Virus record (IMG/VR): IMGVR_UViG_2558860161_000001
DNA from: a virus
Lineage: Duplodnaviria > Heunggongvirae > Uroviricota > Caudoviricetes
Direction: 5' to 3' (one strand)
Length of the DNA: 31,894 nt
A program made the position numbers and the translations under genes. Position 1 is the stretch's first letter; each line of letters begins with the position of its first letter. The notes beneath the pieces are model-generated. The model had not been told where the DNA came from. It did not search any database and worked only from the letters and a program-made list of their open reading frames with translations. Of the stretch, positions 2,837-29,725 are shown one piece after another.

Positions 2837-3448
2837 TTAAATGGCAGCGATATCTAACGGAATATTAATTAGCTTCCCGTGTTTATCTTTCTCCCGGAAA
2901 TTAATATAGGTTTTGGACATTGCCACCTGCAGTGATTCCGATATGGCCTCCATTGCCCGGTTCCAGCGCTCGTCCTGAATCTTGACGCGGCGCAGGGAAA
3001 GAATACGTCCGGTATTAAGCTGGCCCTCTTTGTCCACCTGAAAAGCATCGCTGATGATGGCCCGCAGGTTGGCGTTCGCGCCTTCCGACCACTCGGTGAC
3101 GCACTCGTCTATCAGGTCTTTGGCAATCTGCAGCTCTGGCCCGAAGGTCAGGGTTTCCTGCACGCGGATGGTGATCTGCTGAGCACCGTCGAAGCTGCTG
3201 AAGGTCACGTTGCCTTTGGCACCGCCACGCGTTCTGCCGTACTTCTCGGCCACAAGGTCAAGCCAGGCATAGCACTCGTCAAAGGCACGACGCTTGAAGT
3301 CACTGAGTTCATCGCGTTTAACCTTCGCGGCGACAACCTGTTCTTTAACGAAAGAGTCCATCGCAAGGTCATAGTCAGACACCTGGTCAACCGGCACCAG
3401 ACGCCCCTTGCGGTCTTTCATGTAGTTTTCTTTATTTACTTCGCTCAT
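2837..3448 (-). CDS. Conserved transposable-phage early protein (tentatively DUF3164-like)
   Basis: 203-aa ORF with AAGGTGA Shine-Dalgarno before ATG at 3446..3448. Position downstream of the helper ATPase and sequence character fit the family; assignment is from memory only. Confidence 0.55.
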   Translation of the reverse strand: MSEVNKENYMKDRKGRLVPVDQVSDYDLAMDSFVKEQVVAAKVKRDELSDFKRRAFDECYAWLDLVAEKYGRTRGGAKGNVTFSSFDGAQQITIRVQETLTFGPELQIAKDLIDECVTEWSEGANANLRAIISDAFQVDKEGQLNTGRILSLRRVKIQDERWNRAMEAISESLQVAMSKTYINFREKDKHGKLINIPLDIAAI

Positions 3449-21011: not shown

Positions 21012-21262
21012 TGAAAGAATACCGCTATTCCGGCCCGGCCAGCGGCGTCACGCTGTCGGACGGAACCGAAATCCTGCTCTGGCCGGGGAAGAATGTTTCC
21101 CTGCCGGAGGAGCATGACTATGTGAAGGTACTGGTGGCGCTGAAGCATCTGACACCGGTATCTGAAGAGACTAAACCCGCCAGCACACCGGTTGTGCAGT
21201 CACCAAAGCGCAGGAACGCCGGCGACAACGATGTGAAAACGGAGGACTCCCATGGCAGCTAA
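21011..21262 (+). CDS. Hypothetical protein (83 aa)
   Basis: ATG at 21011 overlapping the upstream stop. Precedes the sheath gene. Confidence 0.45.
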   Translation: MKEYRYSGPASGVTLSDGTEILLWPGKNVSLPEEHDYVKVLVALKHLTPVSEETKPASTPVVQSPKRRNAGDNDVKTEDSHGS

Positions 21263-22679
21263 CTATCTGCATGGCGTCGAAACCATTGAGGTGGAAAACG
21301 GTGCCCGCCCGGTAAAAATGGTGAAGTCTGCCGTCATTGGCCTGATTGGTACCGCCCCGATGGGGGACGTCAATACGCTGGTGCAGTGCCTGTCTGAGAA
21401 AGATGCAGCGGCGTTTGGCAGCCAGCTCACCGGTTTTACCATTCCGCAGGCGCTGGATGCGATCTACGACCATGGGGCAGGCACCGTTCTGGTCATTAAC
21501 GTGCTTGATCCGGCTGTGCATAAAACCGCTGTGGCCGATGAAGATGTAACGTTCGACAAGGCGACGGGCAAGGCACAGCTGGCTAATCCGGTGGTCGCGC
21601 AGCTGGTACTGAAACCGGACAGCGATGGCCAGCCTTATGTGGAAGGTCAGGACTACTCGCTTGATGCACAGACCGGAGTGATTACCAACCTTGGTAAGAG
21701 CATTGCCGCAGATGCAACGGTGAAGGCCAGCTATAACTATGCTGATCCAACTAAAGTCACCCCGGCTGATATCATCGGTGCCGTTAACGCTGCGGGCAAC
21801 CGTACCGGCATGAAGCTGCTTAACGACAGCTTCAACCTGTTTGGCTACTTCGCAAAAATACTGATTGCCCCGGTCTTCTGCACCCAGAACAGCGTCTCGG
21901 TTGAGCTTATCGCCATGGCTGAGAAGCTGGGCGCGGTGACCTACATCGACGCGCCGATTGGTACCACTTTTGCGCAGGCTCTGGCGGGGCGTGGCCCGGA
22001 AGGCACCATTAACTTCAACACCAGCTCCGACCGCGTCCGTCTGTGCTACCCGCACGTCAAGGTGTACGACGCGGCCACCAACAGCGAACGGCTGGAGCCG
22101 CTGAGCCAGCGTGCTGCAGGTCTGCGTGCCAAAGTCGACCTGGACAAGGGCTACTGGTGGTCGTCCTCCAACCAGGAAATTCTGGGTATCACCGGCGTGG
22201 AGCGCCAGCTGTCGGCAATGATTGACGACCCGCAGAGCGAGGTGAACCTGCTCAACGAACAGGGCATCACCACGGTCTTCAGCAGCTACGGCAGCGGCCT
22301 GCGTCTGTGGGGCAACCGTATGGCGGCATGGCCAACGGTCACCCATATGCGCAACTTTGAGAACGTTCGCCGTACCGGTGATGTGATCAACGAGTCCCTG
22401 CGTTACTTCAGCCAGCAGTACATCGACATGCCGATTACCCAGGCGCTGATTGATGCGCTGACGGAGTCGGTCAACGCCTACGGTCGCAAGCTGATTGGCG
22501 ACGGTGCGCTGCTGGGCTTCAGCTGCTGGTTTGATCCGGCCCGCAACGAAGAGACGGAGCTTGCCGCCGGTCACCTGTTGCTGAGCTACAAATACACGCC
22601 ACCACCACCGCTGGAGCGACTGACGTTTGAGACCGAGATCACCTCGGAATATCTGTTAACCCTGAAGGGGAATAGCTGA
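21252..22679 (+). CDS. Tail sheath protein (Mu L-like)
   Basis: 475 aa, followed immediately by the tube gene. Conserved C-terminal sheath region (LRLWGNRMAAWPT...). Confidence 0.85.
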   Translation: MAANYLHGVETIEVENGARPVKMVKSAVIGLIGTAPMGDVNTLVQCLSEKDAAAFGSQLTGFTIPQALDAIYDHGAGTVLVINVLDPAVHKTAVADEDVTFDKATGKAQLANPVVAQLVLKPDSDGQPYVEGQDYSLDAQTGVITNLGKSIAADATVKASYNYADPTKVTPADIIGAVNAAGNRTGMKLLNDSFNLFGYFAKILIAPVFCTQNSVSVELIAMAEKLGAVTYIDAPIGTTFAQALAGRGPEGTINFNTSSDRVRLCYPHVKVYDAATNSERLEPLSQRAAGLRAKVDLDKGYWWSSSNQEILGITGVERQLSAMIDDPQSEVNLLNEQGITTVFSSYGSGLRLWGNRMAAWPTVTHMRNFENVRRTGDVINESLRYFSQQYIDMPITQALIDALTESVNAYGRKLIGDGALLGFSCWFDPARNEETELAAGHLLLSYKYTPPPPLERLTFETEITSEYLLTLKGNS

Positions 22680-23200
22680 TGGCAAAGATTGAGATCAACC
22701 GCATCACGAATGCCAACATCTACCTGGATGGCGCTAACCTGCTGGGCCGGGCCGAGGAGGTCAAACTCCCGGACGTCTCCATGACCATGCAGGAGCATAA
22801 GGCGCTGGGGATGGTGGGCAAAGTGGAACTCCCGGCAGGCTTCGACAAGCTGGAGGGTGAGATCAAGTGGAACAGCTTTTACCGCGACGCGATGCTGTCT
22901 GCTGCGAACCCGTATAAGTCGCTGGCGCTGCAGTGCCGTTCCAGCGTCCAGCGCTACAGTTCGCAGGGGCTGATTGACGAAATCCCGCTGGTCACATTCC
23001 TGACGATCATGTTCAAGAAGAACCCGCTGGGGACGTTCAAACAGCACGAGAACGCCGAGTTCTCTAGCAGCTTCACCTGCACGTACATCAAGCAGGTACT
23101 GGATGGTGAAGAGCTGCTGGAGCTGGACTATCTGGCCAACATCTTCCGAGTCGGCGGCGTTGACCAGTTGACTGACTACCGCATCAATATCGGGGGCTGA
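22679..23200 (+). CDS. Tail tube protein (Mu M/P2 FII-like)
   Basis: 173 aa with TGATG overlap to the sheath gene. Confidence 0.8.
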   Translation: MAKIEINRITNANIYLDGANLLGRAEEVKLPDVSMTMQEHKALGMVGKVELPAGFDKLEGEIKWNSFYRDAMLSAANPYKSLALQCRSSVQRYSSQGLIDEIPLVTFLTIMFKKNPLGTFKQHENAEFSSSFTCTYIKQVLDGEELLELDYLANIFRVGGVDQLTDYRINIGG

Positions 23201-23202
23201 CG

Positions 23203-23484
23203 GTGACCGTCGAGATTGAAGATAAAGGCGGGAACTGTGGTTCGATTGGCATGGGAAATGGTACGTGGTTTACCATCCTTGATATTCCGGGGGTGGAAAA
23301 CCTTTTTAATACCCAGAAAACCAATGATCCGATTGACTGCACCCGCTCTAAAGCACGGAAGCTCGCTGACCTGATTGAGGCATGGGAGCCACCTGACCAC
23401 TGGTTCACCGGCATCGGCAAATCTGAAGGAAAGGCGCTTCTTATCGCCTTCCTGCGTAACTGCAAAGGCTTTCGCACTCACTGA
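23203..23484 (+). CDS. Orphan small ORF (93 aa) between the tube and chaperone genes, unknown function
   Basis: GTG start 2 nt after the tube stop, with a GGGGG stretch upstream. Followed immediately by a strong intrinsic terminator. Coding status is uncertain. Confidence 0.4.
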   Translation: MTVEIEDKGGNCGSIGMGNGTWFTILDIPGVENLFNTQKTNDPIDCTRSKARKLADLIEAWEPPDHWFTGIGKSEGKALLIAFLRNCKGFRTH

Positions 23485-23491
23485 TATCACA

Positions 23492-23514
23492 GGGGCTTCG
23501 GCCCCTTTCTTCTT
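23492..23514 (+). terminator. Rho-independent terminator (GGGGC-TTCG-GCCCC then TTTCTTCTT)
   Basis: Perfect 5-bp GC stem with a UUCG tetraloop and a U-rich tail. Confidence 0.65.
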
Positions 23515-23530
23515 AATCCCCTTTAATATC
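23510..23530 (+). promoter_or_regulatory. 21-bp motif TTCTTAA-N3-CCTTTAATATC (copy 1), candidate late promoter/activator site
   Basis: Near-identical copy at 29326..29346. Both lie in late-operon intergenic regions 30-50 nt upstream of a start codon and contain a -10-like TAATAT. Confidence 0.35.
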
Positions 23531-23582
23531 CGTCACGTCCACCTCCAGACATACTGCTCTGAACTTACACAGGAGCACGATC

Positions 23583-23897
23583 ATGTCACAGACCCAATCC
23601 GATACTTTTAAGCTGTCTTACCCCTTCACCACCGCAGCAGGCACCAGAGTTGAGCAGGTTGAACTGAAACGCCTGACGGTCAAAGACCTGAAGCAGGTGC
23701 GCAAAATCAGTAAAGACCCGGCTGACTGGGACGAACCGCTCATTGCCCGTAGCACCGGTATTCTCCCCGAAGACCTCGATAACATGGATCTTGCCGATTA
23801 CATGGAGCTGCAGAAACGATTTCAGCAAGTCACTGGGCTGGGCAAGAGCGACGAAAACGCTGATGCAGGCGCAGGGGCTGCTGGCGAGGTGGTTTAG
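23583..23897 (+). CDS. Tail assembly chaperone (P2 gpE-like)
   Basis: AGGAG Shine-Dalgarno 7 nt before ATG at 23583. 104 aa. Located between the tube and tape measure genes. Confidence 0.6.
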   Translation: MSQTQSDTFKLSYPFTTAAGTRVEQVELKRLTVKDLKQVRKISKDPADWDEPLIARSTGILPEDLDNMDLADYMELQKRFQQVTGLGKSDENADAGAGAAGEVV

Positions 23898-24000
23898 ATT
23901 TCAGCCGGGGGAGATTGATGCCCTCGATACTGACGATCTGGAGATGTGGCTGGAGCAGGCTGAAGAGCAAATCAAAAGCGAGTTCGGCGACAATCAGTAA
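23743..24000 (+). CDS. Putative frameshift-dependent C-terminal extension of the tail chaperone (E'-like), in the +1 frame
   Basis: Overlapping ORF in the +1 frame relative to the chaperone, open from 23743 and extending about 100 nt past the chaperone stop, with no good independent start. Geometry resembles G/GT or E/E+E' pairs. Confidence 0.35.
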   Translation: MPVAPVFSPKTSITWILPITWSCRNDFSKSLGWARATKTLMQAQGLLARWFRFQPGEIDALDTDDLEMWLEQAEEQIKSEFGDNQ

Positions 24001-24013
24001 CGACTCATCACTT

Positions 24014-24036
24014 AACAGCCGCCCCTCGCGGCTGTT
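24014..24036 (+). terminator. Hairpin AACAGCCGC-CCCTC-GCGGCTGTT upstream of the tape measure gene (possible attenuator)
   Basis: 9-bp stem. The T-rich sequence is not immediately adjacent. Confidence 0.35.
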
Positions 24037-24092
24037 CTGCATGGCTCTCAGACATTTTCCTTCCGTTTTTCCGCTTTCAGAGGATAACAACC

Positions 24093-26558
24093 GTGGCCAG
24101 TGAATTTTCAGTCGGCGTCATTATTGGCGGCATTGTCGGAAGCAGCTTCCGCTCAGCCGTCAGTGGCACCCGACGCGCCCTAGATTCCCTGGGCGATACA
24201 TCGCGCCGCCTGCAGGAACGCCAGAATGCCTTAACTCGTGCAACTGAACGTTATGGCCAGTTAGGCTCTTCCCGGATGCAGCGCCTCAACAGCGAACTGC
24301 TGCGGGTAAGCCGCACAATGGAGCAAATTGAACGCCAGCAGCGCCGTCTGTCAGCAGTATCAGCCACCAGTGACGCGCTGAAAGCTAACCGCATGGCGCT
24401 CTATGGCCAGGGAGCAGAGACTTATGGTATCGCCCGAACGCTGGGCGCACCGGTCATGGCCTCTGTCAAACAATATTCATCGTTTGAATCCCAGCTACGC
24501 GATATCAGTGTCACCGGTGATCTGGATTCAAGGCAGGAACAGGCCATCGGTACTGCCATTCGTCGGGCATCCCTGCAGGTCAATCAGCTCCAGGAATCTC
24601 TGTTGAGCGGCGTTGGTCAACTGGTTGCCGATGGCATGAATCCGCAGCAGGCAGCGACCTTTGCCGGGATGCTCGGTAAAGCGGCCACGGCCACCAAAGC
24701 AGATATGACTGACCTCGCAAAAATGACCTATGCCTTTAGCGATGCGCTGAAAATTACCGATGCCAAAGAGCTGGAGCAGGCGTTTGGGATTGCGGCAACC
24801 GGGGCCAAGCTAGGCTCGTTTGAGCTGAAGGATATGGCGAAAGCGTTACCCGGTATGGCCAAAGCCTTCGCTGCACGTGGTATTTACGGCAAAGACGCCA
24901 TAACCCAGATCGTAGCCAGTCTGGAAGTGGGTAAAGGCAGCGGCTCAGCGGAAGAGGCCGTCACCAATATGTCAAACTGGCTGGCGGCAATGGGACGCGG
25001 AGATACCACGCAGAAATACGCTAAGGCTGGCGTGGATTACCAGGGATCAATGCAAAATTATGTAGCCCAGGGGTTCTCTCAATATGAAGCCTCCCTGATG
25101 ATTGCCAACCGGTTTATCGACGGTAAAGGCAAGGCATTTGTGCAGCAATGGAAGGCGGCAGGCTCAAGAGGCGATCAGGAAGGCCAGCAGAGGCTGATGG
25201 AGTCCTTCGGACTGGCGGAAGTCTTTACCGATATCCAGACCGTGAACCATCTACTGTCTATGCGTCAGGGCTGGGATAAGTACCAATCTAACAAGCAGGA
25301 AATGAACACTCCCTCTGCAATGTCTACGCTGGACAAGGATGCAGCGAAACAAAATGATACGCTCGAAGGACGTTGGCGCAGAACGCAGATTGGGTTTAAC
25401 GACTCGGCCATTAGCATCGGAGAATCATTACGTCCGGCGTTGATCCAGCTGGGGGAAACATTCATCCCCTTAATGAACAGCGTTGGAAAATGGATTGCGG
25501 CTAATCCGCAACTCGTGAGCGGCACAATTCAAGTGATTGGCGCATTACTTGCGTTCAAGATGGCAACCATCGGCCTCAAGCTCGGGCTGAATCTCCTTAT
25601 TTCACCTTTCGTCAACGTCTGGAAAAATGCCGTGCTCCTGCGGGCCAACTGGCTTCGCCTGACACTCGCGCTGGGTGAAGGCGGCAAACTTCGCTGGCTG
25701 GTGACCGGCTTCAGCGCCGTCGCCAGAGGAGCCAGAACACTGGGTGGTGTGCTGTCAGGTGGGCTGGTTCGCGGCATTATGATCGCCGGGCGTGCCGTTC
25801 TCTGGATTGGGCGGGCATTGCTGATGAATCCCATTGGTCTTGCTATCACCGCCGTCGCGGCGGCGGCTTATCTTATTTATCGTAACTGGGGGGCTGTCAG
25901 CAGTTGGTTCAAACAGCGCTGGGCTGACATTAAAGAGGCTTTTAACGGCGGTATCGTGGGGATTGGTAAACTGCTGATTAACTGGTCGCCGGTTGGTCTG
26001 CTCTATAAAGCCTTTGCGGCTGCGCTGAAATATCTCGGCGTTGATCTGCCCGCGAAGTTCACTGACTTCGGTGGCCATCTTATCGACGGGCTGATAAACG
26101 GCATCAAAAACAAATGGGAGTCGCTCAAAACCACCGTCACAGATATGGGTGACAGTGTCGGCGGCTGGTTCAAGGAAAAGCTGGGTATCCATTCGCCGAG
26201 CCGCGTGTTTATGGGCTTTGGTGACAACATCGCGCAGGGTGCCGCTATCGGCCTGCAGCGTACCACACCACTGGCAGCGCTCGCCGGACAACGCCTGGCA
26301 ACAGAGATGACTCCCGATGTTCCCCGTATCCCGTCGCCGGAAATCATGGCTGCGGGATATTCAGGTCGTGGCGCAGTTGCAACTGGCGGCGGAACATCTG
26401 GCGGTATCCAGGTCAGCTTTAATCCTCAGTTTTTCCTCAATGGCAAAGAAACCGCAGCGCCTGCCGGACTGACCGGCGCACTGAATATGAGCCTGCATGA
26501 ACTGGAGAAAATGCTGGAGCGTCTGCTGGCTCAGAAACAACGTCGGGGGTACGAATAA
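24093..26558 (+). CDS. Tail tape measure protein
   Basis: 821 aa with a GTG start after AGAGGA. Helical N-terminal half, Gly/Ala-rich hydrophobic segments in the middle, position after the chaperone pair. Confidence 0.85.
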   Translation: MASEFSVGVIIGGIVGSSFRSAVSGTRRALDSLGDTSRRLQERQNALTRATERYGQLGSSRMQRLNSELLRVSRTMEQIERQQRRLSAVSATSDALKANRMALYGQGAETYGIARTLGAPVMASVKQYSSFESQLRDISVTGDLDSRQEQAIGTAIRRASLQVNQLQESLLSGVGQLVADGMNPQQAATFAGMLGKAATATKADMTDLAKMTYAFSDALKITDAKELEQAFGIAATGAKLGSFELKDMAKALPGMAKAFAARGIYGKDAITQIVASLEVGKGSGSAEEAVTNMSNWLAAMGRGDTTQKYAKAGVDYQGSMQNYVAQGFSQYEASLMIANRFIDGKGKAFVQQWKAAGSRGDQEGQQRLMESFGLAEVFTDIQTVNHLLSMRQGWDKYQSNKQEMNTPSAMSTLDKDAAKQNDTLEGRWRRTQIGFNDSAISIGESLRPALIQLGETFIPLMNSVGKWIAANPQLVSGTIQVIGALLAFKMATIGLKLGLNLLISPFVNVWKNAVLLRANWLRLTLALGEGGKLRWLVTGFSAVARGARTLGGVLSGGLVRGIMIAGRAVLWIGRALLMNPIGLAITAVAAAAYLIYRNWGAVSSWFKQRWADIKEAFNGGIVGIGKLLINWSPVGLLYKAFAAALKYLGVDLPAKFTDFGGHLIDGLINGIKNKWESLKTTVTDMGDSVGGWFKEKLGIHSPSRVFMGFGDNIAQGAAIGLQRTTPLAALAGQRLATEMTPDVPRIPSPEIMAAGYSGRGAVATGGGTSGGIQVSFNPQFFLNGKETAAPAGLTGALNMSLHELEKMLERLLAQKQRRGYE

Positions 26559-27654: not shown

Positions 27655-28811
27655 ACAGCACTGCACAGGTCGCATCAGCGTTAACCGGCGTCAGCGATGT
27701 TCTGAGTCCGGTGTTCACGCTGTGGTATCTGCAGAAGAACATCACCACCGATATCGCCCCCTATGTCACCCGCGTAACCTACAGCGATAACATCAAAAGC
27801 GAGTCCGATACCATTGAGGTGGAGCTGGACGACACCGATGGCCGCTGGCTGGATAAGTGGTATCCGGGCAAGGGTGACACGCTGACGCTGAAAATGGGTT
27901 ATCAGGGCGAGAAGCTGCTGTCCTGTGGTACGTTCTCGATAGACGAGATCGAGGTGAGTTCGCCCGCGTCCGTTGTCGCTATCCGGGGCGTGGCCACGTC
28001 GGTCAACAACGCCCTGCGGACAAAATCCAGTCGTGGTTTCGAGAGCACCACGCTGGCGGCTATAGCCGGACGGATTGCCAAAAAGCATCAGCTGAAGCTG
28101 GTTGGCAGTATTGAGTCCATCAAAATTGACCGGGTGACCCAGTATGCTGAAACGGACGTGGGCTTCCTGCGTCGACTGGCCAGCGAGTATGGTTATGCCG
28201 TGAAAGTGGTCAGCGACCAGCTGATTTTCTCTCATCTGGCCACGCTGCGCGATCAGGAGCCGGTAAAACAGTTGAAGCCACAGGATGTGGCCAGCTTTTC
28301 CCTGCGTGACACCATCAACCGCGTCTACAAATCCGCAAAGGTAAAACACCAGAAGAGCAGCGATAAAAAGCTGATCGTCTACGAAGCTGATGGCGGTACC
28401 AGCGAAAGCGACAAACAAACCAAAGGCGGTAAGGTCACCAGTGCCGACTCACTGAAGGTCAACAGCCGCGTCAGTGATCCGGACAGCGCCCGGATTAAAG
28501 CAGATTCGGCGCTGGCCAGGCATAACGAATACCAGCAGAACGGCTCGCTGTCGCTGATGGGGACGCCTCAGTTGACTGCAGGCAACAAAATTGAACTGGT
28601 GGGTTTTGGTCAGTTATCCGGGCCATGGCTGATAACTACTGCCCGCCATGCGTTTGACCGTAACAGCGGCTACATCACCGAACTGGAAGTGGCACGAGGG
28701 CCGGTTACGCAGGGCAAAGCGAAGAAAGGTAAAAAGACCGGAAAAACCCAGACGCTGACCGTCTATAAACCGGACGGCAGCACGTCCACGGTAATAAAGG
28801 AGAAAAAATAA
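27642..28811 (+). CDS. Late control D-like tail/baseplate hub protein (P2 gpD/Mu P-like)
   Basis: 389 aa following the X-like gene. Sequence character fits the gpD family. Confidence 0.75.
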   Translation: MAEINSTAQVASALTGVSDVLSPVFTLWYLQKNITTDIAPYVTRVTYSDNIKSESDTIEVELDDTDGRWLDKWYPGKGDTLTLKMGYQGEKLLSCGTFSIDEIEVSSPASVVAIRGVATSVNNALRTKSSRGFESTTLAAIAGRIAKKHQLKLVGSIESIKIDRVTQYAETDVGFLRRLASEYGYAVKVVSDQLIFSHLATLRDQEPVKQLKPQDVASFSLRDTINRVYKSAKVKHQKSSDKKLIVYEADGGTSESDKQTKGGKVTSADSLKVNSRVSDPDSARIKADSALARHNEYQQNGSLSLMGTPQLTAGNKIELVGFGQLSGPWLITTARHAFDRNSGYITELEVARGPVTQGKAKKGKKTGKTQTLTVYKPDGSTSTVIKEKK

Positions 28812-29323
28812 TGGCAGGCGTCACCCGTCAGGTCGGTACGGTCAGCGCCGTCGATGCCGACAAGGTTCAGGCCCGCGTTCGTCTGCCTGAGTGCGATAAC
28901 CTGCGCACTAACTGGCTTAACGTACTGCAGCGCAACACCCAGGATAACAAGGATTACTGGCTACCTGACGTGGGGGAGCAGGTTGAGGTGCTGCTCGATG
29001 CCAACGGCGAGGATGGTGTCATTCTGGGCGCGGTGTATTCAGACGTCGATAAGCCACCGTTCAGCGACAAAAACGTCCGGGGCACGAAATACGCGGATGG
29101 CGCAGAGTTCAGCTATAACCGCGCGACCCATACGCTGACGGTCAAAGGTGGTATCGAGCGCGTAGTAATCGAGGTTGCGGTAGGTATCAGCCTGAAGGGG
29201 AAAACCATTGATTTGACCGCTGACACCACCACGGTGAACGGCAACCTTGAAATCAACGGCAATGCCCACTCCACAGGCAGCATGCTCTCTGACGGCCAGA
29301 ACTCCAATCATCACTCCCACTGA
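28811..29323 (+). CDS. Baseplate assembly protein V-like (spike)
   Basis: 170 aa. VGEQVEVLLDANGEDGVILGAVY matches the gpV-type pattern. Confidence 0.75.
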   Translation: MAGVTRQVGTVSAVDADKVQARVRLPECDNLRTNWLNVLQRNTQDNKDYWLPDVGEQVEVLLDANGEDGVILGAVYSDVDKPPFSDKNVRGTKYADGAEFSYNRATHTLTVKGGIERVVIEVAVGISLKGKTIDLTADTTTVNGNLEINGNAHSTGSMLSDGQNSNHHSH

Positions 29324-29325
29324 CC

Positions 29326-29346
29326 TTCTTAAACGCCTTTAATATC
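29326..29346 (+). promoter_or_regulatory. 21-bp motif TTCTTAA-N3-CCTTTAATATC (copy 2), overlapping the first of two tandem hairpins before the W-like gene
   Basis: Matches copy 1 at 23510..23530. Hairpins AACGCC/GGCGTT (29332..29352) and GGGGCA/TGCCCC (29361..29376) follow. ATG at 29378. Confidence 0.35.
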
Positions 29347-29377
29347 GGCGTTCCCGCACAGGGGCAATACTGCCCCC

Positions 29378-29725
29378 ATGAAAACAACTTCCGTATTCTG
29401 GCAACCGGCCCTGCAGGCCCCTGGCGAAATCGTCCGGGGGCTGGATGATATCTGGCAGGCCATTCAAATCATCCTGCGAACTCCTCGCGGCAGCGACCCG
29501 CATCGCCCGGAGTTCGGCAGCAACCTGCATCTTTATATCGACTGGCCCATCGACCGGGCTATCCCACATGTGGTGCGCGAGTCCGTTGATGCCATCCGGC
29601 GCTGGGAGCCTCGCTGCCAGCTTATGTCGGTTAAACCCGCCGTCGACGGTGAACATCTTACGCTCCGGGTGAGCTGGAAAGGCTCTGACGGACAGCCCCG
29701 GACTCAGGAGCTTTTATGGCGCTGA
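29378..29725 (+). CDS. Baseplate wedge protein (GPW/gp25 family)
   Basis: 115 aa. IQIILRTPRGSDPHRPEFGSNL ... RWEPR aligns well with P2 gpW. Confidence 0.8.
   Translation: MKTTSVFWQPALQAPGEIVRGLDDIWQAIQIILRTPRGSDPHRPEFGSNLHLYIDWPIDRAIPHVVRESVDAIRRWEPRCQLMSVKPAVDGEHLTLRVSWKGSDGQPRTQELLWR

Follow-up and report, generated by a model that had tools for sequence, protein, structure and literature searches.

The 93-aa open reading frame (ORF) between the tail tube and tail assembly chaperone genes of the 31,894-nt stretch of viral DNA analysed here (the window) is, on the evidence of its own sequence and that of its relatives, an accessory gene that truly encodes a protein, of the DUF7739 / PHROG 1239 family. 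That family is established but uncharacterised, and the predicted terminator which follows it appears to be the lineage-wide end of the sheath-tube unit, with the ORF inserted ahead of it. The reading that we favour, with a probability of about 0.7, is that the gene is DUF7739 accessory cargo which would be co-expressed late with the tube gene, lies ahead of an older operon terminator and, as the weakest part of the reading, may have an inhibitor-like role outside the tail.

The tail genes of the window are arranged in the order sheath, tube, small ORF, a 98-nt intergenic stretch, gpE-type chaperone and tape-measure, the last of which starts at 24093 (Table 1). A Mu-like transposase and Mu-like head genes are combined in the window with a P2-like tail module, and by its gene sequences the window is classed as a BcepMu-like (Bcepmuvirus-type) transposable prophage of Enterobacteriaceae. 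Klebsiella phage KP12 shares 99.8% DNA identity over the region, its tail core protein being 100% identical to the tube product of the window, and E. coli phage PhiKM, which is classified as Bcepmuvirus, shares 88.5%. The two products of the chaperone pair are named "phage tail assembly protein" and "GpE family phage tail protein" by RefSeq in a relative. The 93-aa, GTG-initiated ORF reported in the initial annotation is present on the + strand, where 2 nt separate its first codon from the tube stop codon (23198-23200) and where it ends with a TGA at 23482-23484. Also as reported there, its GC content is lower than that of its neighbours, at 51.1% versus 58.3% for the sheath and 57.1% for the tube gene; the difference is modest, corresponds to the 14th percentile among windows of 282 nt, and is accompanied by a GC3 of 56% versus 71-82% for sheath and tube. 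A repeat search around the ORF found no flanking direct or inverted repeats hinting at transposition, and no Rfam matches were obtained over positions 23000-24100. A separate GC hairpin (AACAGCCGC-loop-GCGGCTGTT) was noted at 24014-24036, in the interval that separates the chaperone frameshift frame, which ends at 24000, from the tape-measure gene; it has no T-run and is thus not a canonical terminator.

Table 1. Coordinates of the features at and around the tube-chaperone junction of the window.
Feature	Position	Strand	Basis
Sheath gene	21252-22679		
Tail tube gene, P2 FII type	22679-23200	+	PF04985, E = 1.1e-54
GGGGG run in the final tube codons	23192-23196	+	Sequence inspection; 6 nt 5' of the GTG
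93-aa accessory gene, DUF7739 / PHROG 1239, Sf6 gene 22-like	23203-23484	+	PHROG match, pN/pS, frame conservation
Intrinsic-terminator-like element	23491-23514	+	Stem-loop 23491-23506 with UUCG loop, T-run 23507-23514
22-nt block CTTCTTAATCCCCTTTAATATC (23509-23530), 19-nt spacer, CATACT (23550-23555)	23509-23555	+	Conserved block
Tail assembly chaperone gene, gpE type	23583-23897	+	PF10109, E = 6.8e-23
Chaperone frameshift extension frame	23743-24000	+	RefSeq annotation of the pair in a relative

The coding status of the ORF had been called open in the initial annotation on account of antisense ORFs of similar length, and two such ORFs do exist on the - strand, of 104 aa (23176-23490) and 97 aa (23184-23477). 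The sense product matches phrog_1239 over its entire length (E = 1.5e-45, 154 bits, residues 1-93 against positions 1-96 of a 96-position profile), and the antisense ORFs have no profile match in Pfam or PHROG. The pattern of synonymous and non-synonymous substitutions, determined over 48 distinct ungapped copies from relatives, is that of purifying selection in the sense frame (pN/pS = 0.155), with values of 2.1-2.4 in four other frames; the antisense frame that shares its third codon positions with the sense frame gave 0.27, a shadow effect that was to be expected. Comparison with more distant copies of the ORF gave pairwise omega values of 0.03-0.14. A lack of reading-frame conservation among relatives would, according to the initial annotation, have refuted a coding role; the frame proved to be conserved, the sense frame being open in 55 of 60 distinct copies with nucleotide identities to the window of 66-100%, and the frames of the two long antisense ORFs in 33 and 16 of the 60. 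The first codon occupies a constant position (GTG in 39 sequences, ATG in 19 and TTG in one), and GTG is supported as the true start by Sf6 gp22 (the product of gene 22; 40% identity over the full length) and by the homologue of Yersinia phage fHe-Yen8-01 (39% identity, likewise full length), both of which align from the N-terminal M-T/S-V-E. Purifying selection, the open sense frame, the PHROG match and the poor conservation of the antisense ORFs together settle the coding status at the level of sequence comparison, at which the antisense ORFs are spurious; the alternative of a non-coding spacer, which the initial annotation had offered, is rejected by the first three of these.

Not every copy of the gene is intact. 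Stop codons or frameshifts were seen in some enterobacterial copies (loci L032, L034, L049, L059, L068, L077 and L085), copy L041 has an internal deletion, and Photorhabdus prophages (L114-L117:3009-3179) hold only a 56-aa C-terminal DUF7739 remnant in a gap of 248 nt. Such remnants, stops, frameshifts and the deletion imply that the DUF7739 gene is decaying in some lineages.

Membership of the window protein in DUF7739 is transitive through its relatives and not direct. Against the Pfam model PF24881 (DUF7739), which has a gathering cut-off of 27, the window protein scores 18.7 bits and its close relative P0012 24.9, whereas the more distant P0036 and P0043 exceed the cut-off with 30.8 and 72.3 bits, and precomputed PF24881 hits are on record for P0007 and P0012. 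When 1.84 billion representatives were searched exhaustively with a profile, only 77 clusters were returned, and most of the cluster representatives are stand-alone proteins of about 85-100 aa. The family alignment contains the conserved motifs NGTWF, TNDP, WxPPxxW and a C-terminal FFxxCxGF, and in an alignment of 50 sequences residues N19, D42, F83, C87, G89 and F90 are nearly invariant. Full-length homologues with 30-50% identity occur in unrelated phages. In lambdoid and P22-like phages the home of these genes is the non-essential early-left region, after the recombination genes and before xis/int; Sf6 gene 22 is located between abc2 and int, a member in a lambdoid prophage lies 3' of RecT/YqaJ, the members of Edwardsiella phage EPP-1 and of an Enterobacter phage, the latter beside EaA, belong here too, and the short-tailed P22-like phages carry their homologues in early regions. 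A second home is formed by blocks of small genes in phages of 92-95 kb. The homologues of Sf6 gene 22 type and those of pHCM2-type plasmid-phages resemble the window protein in length, in the M-T/S-V-E N-terminus and in the four motifs; the Sf6 gene 22-type homologues are found in early-left accessory regions, whereas the window gene is located in a late tail operon.

A conserved partner gene of the family was considered and rejected, as the flanking genes change from one context to the next. The DUF2737-DUF7739 and DUF7739-YopX "fusions" are probably adjacent genes that have been merged by gene callers. Other database entries join DUF7739 to part of Gp37 (P0016) or to the C-terminal part of the tube protein (P0035, from an E. 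coli plasmid), and these are probably products of deletion, frameshift or assembly error and not true fusions. No family function is given by the Pfam, PHROG, NCBIfam or PADLOC libraries; NCBIfam and PADLOC returned no matches, the PADLOC models being for defence and not for anti-defence. A literature search found no paper that mentions DUF7739, PF24881, phrog_1239, the RefSeq protein accessions or fHe-Yen8-01. The statement in the initial annotation that the product is not similar to structural proteins holds, since neither Pfam nor PHROG gave a match of that kind.

Occupancy of the tube-chaperone junction was analysed in 80 viral contigs with tube proteins that share 93-100% identity with that of the window. 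Most of them have a tube-chaperone gap of about 382 nt which contains the ORF alone, 11 have a gap of about 665 nt with a PF13876 gene in addition to the ORF, and seven have a gap of 87-129 nt with no gene; one contig shows an internal deletion and a few carry pseudogenes. The presence/absence comparison suggested in the initial annotation has thus revealed empty, single-gene and double-gene states among very close relatives, and the ORF is absent even at tube identities of 97-100% (L030, L043-L045, L048 and L050). The PF13876 cargo encodes a protein of 97 aa of the N4 Gp49 / Sf6 gene 66 family ("Gp49 family protein" in RefSeq) and precedes the DUF7739 gene, overlapping its start, which is then ATG. 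It lies at L007:3525-3818 and was found also in L012, L015, L019, L024, L028, L029, L034, L036 and L042, as well as in L084, L096-L098, L100 and L104. Both the PF13876 and the DUF7739 cargo genes have namesakes in the accessory regions of Sf6. In L104, from Pantoea stewartii, the gap measures 1966 nt against the usual 665 nt or so, and the approximately 1.3 kb of extra DNA between the DUF7739 and chaperone genes may be an insertion sequence.

In a broader set of 74 loci, taken from assemblies at one genome per species, many Enterobacterales and almost all betaproteobacterial relatives have no gene at the junction. Other loci hold either DUF7739, intact or, in Photorhabdus, as truncated remnants, or different cargo. 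Pectobacterium and Symbiopectobacterium (L113, L119 and L127, at about 3026-3231) have a gene for a 66-aa phrog_9518 protein; other Pectobacterium loci (L134, L136, L138 and L141-L143, at about 3040-3372) have a Fer2-like gene of about 100 codons that belongs to phrog_844 (ferredoxin), placed by PHROGs in the category "moron, auxiliary metabolic gene and host takeover"; and a Neisseriaceae prophage (L152:3096-4343) has at this junction a CdiA-CT RNase A toxin (RNAse_A_bac, PF18431, E = 8.5e-32) paired with a CdiI_2 immunity protein (PF18593, E = 1.1e-17). No gene is present in the 121-nt annotated gap of BcepMu and phiE255. Mu and P2 also have nothing at this place, as the initial annotation had it, with annotated gaps of 9 nt between M and the chaperone gene in Mu and of 56 nt between FII and E in P2. 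Judged from these sequences, the junction behaves as a cargo hot spot which is either empty or occupied by one or two genes, and the cargo is of five or more unrelated kinds. The identities of the tube and chaperone proteins vary independently of each other, a 100% identical tube being found with chaperones of 70-100% identity, which makes the junction a mosaic recombination boundary as well.

The tube gene was detected in 642 of 5,426 complete E. coli genomes, including that of an ST131 strain, and an ST131 prophage has an 86%-identical copy of the ORF in the same place. Megablast found the ORF in only 39 of those E. coli genomes, a count that is an underestimate due to DNA divergence; a protein cluster at 84% identity is on record for at least 1,000 contigs.

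The terminator-like element identified by consensus scan has the form A-GGGGC-UUCG-GCCCC-U followed by TTCTTCTT, with six pairs, five of them G-C, and a folding energy of -11.8 kcal/mol; the end coordinate in the initial annotation, 23514, coincides with the last position of the T-run. Compared with shuffled sequences the hairpin has a z of -2.2, with two of 200 shuffles as good, so that it is only moderately unusual in isolation, and what really supports it is that relatives have conserved it. Its tail, TTCTTCTTA, has six T in nine positions, and the interruption of the T-run (TTCTTCTT) means that the predicted termination may be partial. A GC hairpin with a T-run is kept directly after the tube gene in all empty sites of the close relatives except L083, and at the sites that keep it the hairpin is followed by the conserved sequence AATCCCCTTTAATATCCG. 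At the equivalent place BcepMu has GGCCCGC-UUCG-GCGGGCC-UUUUUU and the Salmonella STM4212 locus has CGGGGC-UGCG-GCCCCG, and a hairpin with a T-run was found also at the junctions without the ORF of phiE255, Xenorhabdus, Brenneria, Erwinia and Pandoraea. Twelve distinct variants of the hairpin, each folded separately, gave -9.2 to -24.1 kcal/mol, and their stems include GGGGC/GCCCC, GGGGGCC/GGCTCCC, GGGAGC/GCTCCC, GAGGGGCC/GGCCCCTT and GGCCCGC/GCGGGCC. In most lineages of the species-wide set the hairpin is located 47-90 nt 5' of the chaperone start. Of the cargo, the DUF7739 and phrog_9518 genes lie upstream of it. The toxin-immunity pair and the Fer2-like gene are located on its downstream side, and in the case of the Fer2-like gene the hairpin comes immediately after the tube gene. 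As empty sites, including that of BcepMu, keep a hairpin and T-run with different stems, the predicted terminator predates the ORF. Of the description in the initial annotation, according to which the ORF is followed by its own strong, textbook UUCG-tetraloop terminator, the hairpin and T-run are therefore confirmed; their attribution to the ORF is not, since they are present also in relatives that lack it.

A consensus scan of positions 21442-25330 found no sigma-70-like site on the + strand; on sequence alone a weak promoter may lie inside the tube gene. The 2-nt distance from the tube stop codon is too short to accommodate a separate promoter for the ORF, and from the absence of a promoter, the 2-nt spacing and the position upstream of the terminator we infer that the ORF is co-transcribed late with sheath and tube and is translated by coupling. 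The GGGGG run in the last tube codons is a possible Shine-Dalgarno-like element for such coupled translation. In the scheme which we propose, the ORF would be expressed in this way during late infection, its translation depending on that of the tube gene, and the terminator, possibly together with a late promoter immediately 3' of it, would separate the abundant sheath and tube messages from those of the chaperone, tape-measure and baseplate genes and so lower the expression of these low-copy products relative to sheath and tube. A candidate for the late promoter is provided by a 22-nt block (CTTCTTAAnCnCCTTTAATATC) which, followed by a 19-nt spacer and (C/A)ATACT, occurs exactly twice in the window, both times on the + strand and both times in an intergenic gap of the tail cluster. 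The second copy, at 29325-29371, is located in the gap between the gpV-like (28811-29323) and gpW-like (29378-29725) genes. The block and the hexamer are kept in empty-site relatives, with a variable spacer sequence which in L030, the one relative checked for this, is of equal length. We hypothesise that the copy at 23509-23555 is an activator-dependent late promoter for the chaperone/tape-measure unit; no Mor/C-type late activator was found among nine ORFs of the window, mostly from its early/regulatory region.

Structure prediction, which had also been suggested in the initial annotation, yielded for the 93-aa product an AlphaFold model of a compact alpha/beta domain (pLDDT 87.4, pTM 0.80). 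Foldseek gave no match at E <= 0.001 against the PDB and BFVD, and a sequence-profile search of the PDB gave none. The predicted fold is weakly like two small protein-binding inhibitors, the Neisseria HU-binding DNA mimic DMP12 (PDB 3W1O) and CdiI of B. pseudomallei E479 (PDB 5J4A); these Foldseek hits are not significant, and the two proteins share 8-9% identity with the window protein. DMP12 is acidic, with a pI of 4.39 (PMC3643605), whereas the window protein is near neutral (pI 6.06, with 12 acidic and 11 basic residues) and does not have the charge pattern of a DNA mimic. A DNA-mimic mechanism is unlikely at this pI, as the strongly acidic surface is missing. No paper was found in the literature that links DMP12 or YfbM to the SUKH superfamily.

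The product would be, in the scheme proposed above, a soluble alpha/beta protein of 10 kDa which tail assembly does not require and which binds and modulates a host or competitor protein, in the manner of an inhibitor or in counter-defence; this last step is the weakest. The patchy distribution of the gene, the early accessory-region homes of its homologues and the resemblance to inhibitor and immunity proteins are what lead us to a small binder or inhibitor of a host or competitor function, to which we give somewhat less than an even chance. A single role shared by the whole family is not obvious, as the genes belong to early operons in lambdoid phages and expression would be late here. One possibility is that DUF7739 blocks a host immune sensor which reacts to late structural proteins, and this would explain production of the ORF together with the tube. 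The CdiA-type toxin/immunity pair and the other "moron" cargo in the slot fit a counter-defence role, without showing it, and the stronger proposal, of which the blocking of such a sensor would be part, that the junction is a dedicated counter-defence or competition slot and DUF7739 a family of small inhibitors seems to us rather doubtful.

Other explanations of the ORF were weighed against this cargo reading. It could be a lysogenic-conversion moron, expressed in the uninduced prophage from a weak promoter in the 3' end of the tube gene and of benefit to the host, perhaps by acting against a toxin in the manner of an orphan immunity-like protein. The presence/absence pattern, the lower GC3, the weak fold likeness to the CdiI immunity protein and the toxin-immunity pair at the same junction of the Neisseriaceae prophage all speak for this, but the + strand has no sigma-70-like site in the scanned interval, the ORF starts 2 nt from the tube stop, and it lies upstream of the operon terminator, while the toxin-immunity and Fer2-like cargo lie downstream; we regard such a moron as unlikely. 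Slightly lower still is the likelihood of a virion-associated protein that is made with the tail proteins, packaged and delivered to the next host. It would agree with the co-expression with sheath and tube that the position of the ORF suggests, and the fHe-Yen8-01 homologue gp123 (L004:4001-4309) is annotated as "particle associated protein", as are a DNA methyltransferase and a large ADP-ribosyltransferase near to it; no basis for this annotation was found in the literature, however, lambdoid and P22-like phages have the family in early operons, and prophages whose tube proteins show about 97-100% identity lack the gene.

The same absences at 97-100% tube identity, together with those from BcepMu, phiE255, P2 and Mu, make it quite improbable that the product is an assembly or structural accessory factor of this type of tail, such as an extra tube chaperone. 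A gene that is flanked by those for tube and chaperone and is closely coupled to the former is what one would expect of such a factor, but homologues are encoded in the early regions of short-tailed P22-like phages, and no profile of a tail family is matched. Hardly credible at all is a non-coding spacer which serves only to carry the terminator, with the ORF as a chance open frame. Antisense ORFs of similar length would suit it, but purifying selection on a frame that stays open at 66-100% nucleotide identity, the full-length homologues at 30-50% identity in unrelated phages, and empty sites showing that the terminator needs no such spacer are all against it.

According to the concept of Juhala and Hendrix, a moron is reportedly an additional gene, equipped with a separate promoter and terminator, that is inserted among the late genes of lambdoid phages. 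The window gene is like the lambdoid morons in being an extra gene in a structural operon, patchy among close relatives and of differing base composition; it is unlike them in lacking a separate promoter and in being followed by a terminator that appears to be that of the operon. The typical moron footprint recognised in the initial annotation is thus present as regards an accessory gene with a patchy distribution and varied contexts, but not as regards an independent transcription unit, for which there is neither room for a promoter nor a match to one, and judged by its sequence context the ORF is not a classical moron. Mu-like Pseudomonas phages carry anti-CRISPR and other accessory loci inside their structural operons, and accessory regions are said to have been described in that group. 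These loci provide what seems to be the nearest analogy, being likewise composed of small variable genes with differing cargo at a fixed late-structural junction of a transposable phage. The slot in the window differs from them in being the tube-chaperone junction, in having no associated regulator gene and in giving no PADLOC match.

Current concepts are left unchanged by these findings, which provide a clean example of a known phenomenon. They settle the annotation of the locus, in that the ORF is a real gene, its antisense counterparts are spurious, and the predicted terminator has to be assigned to the tail operon. They also define a cargo slot in a family of prophages that is common in E. 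coli, and this slot could be mined for accessory and anti-defence genes. As DUF7739 is widespread in temperate enterobacterial phages, one functional test would annotate many genomes.
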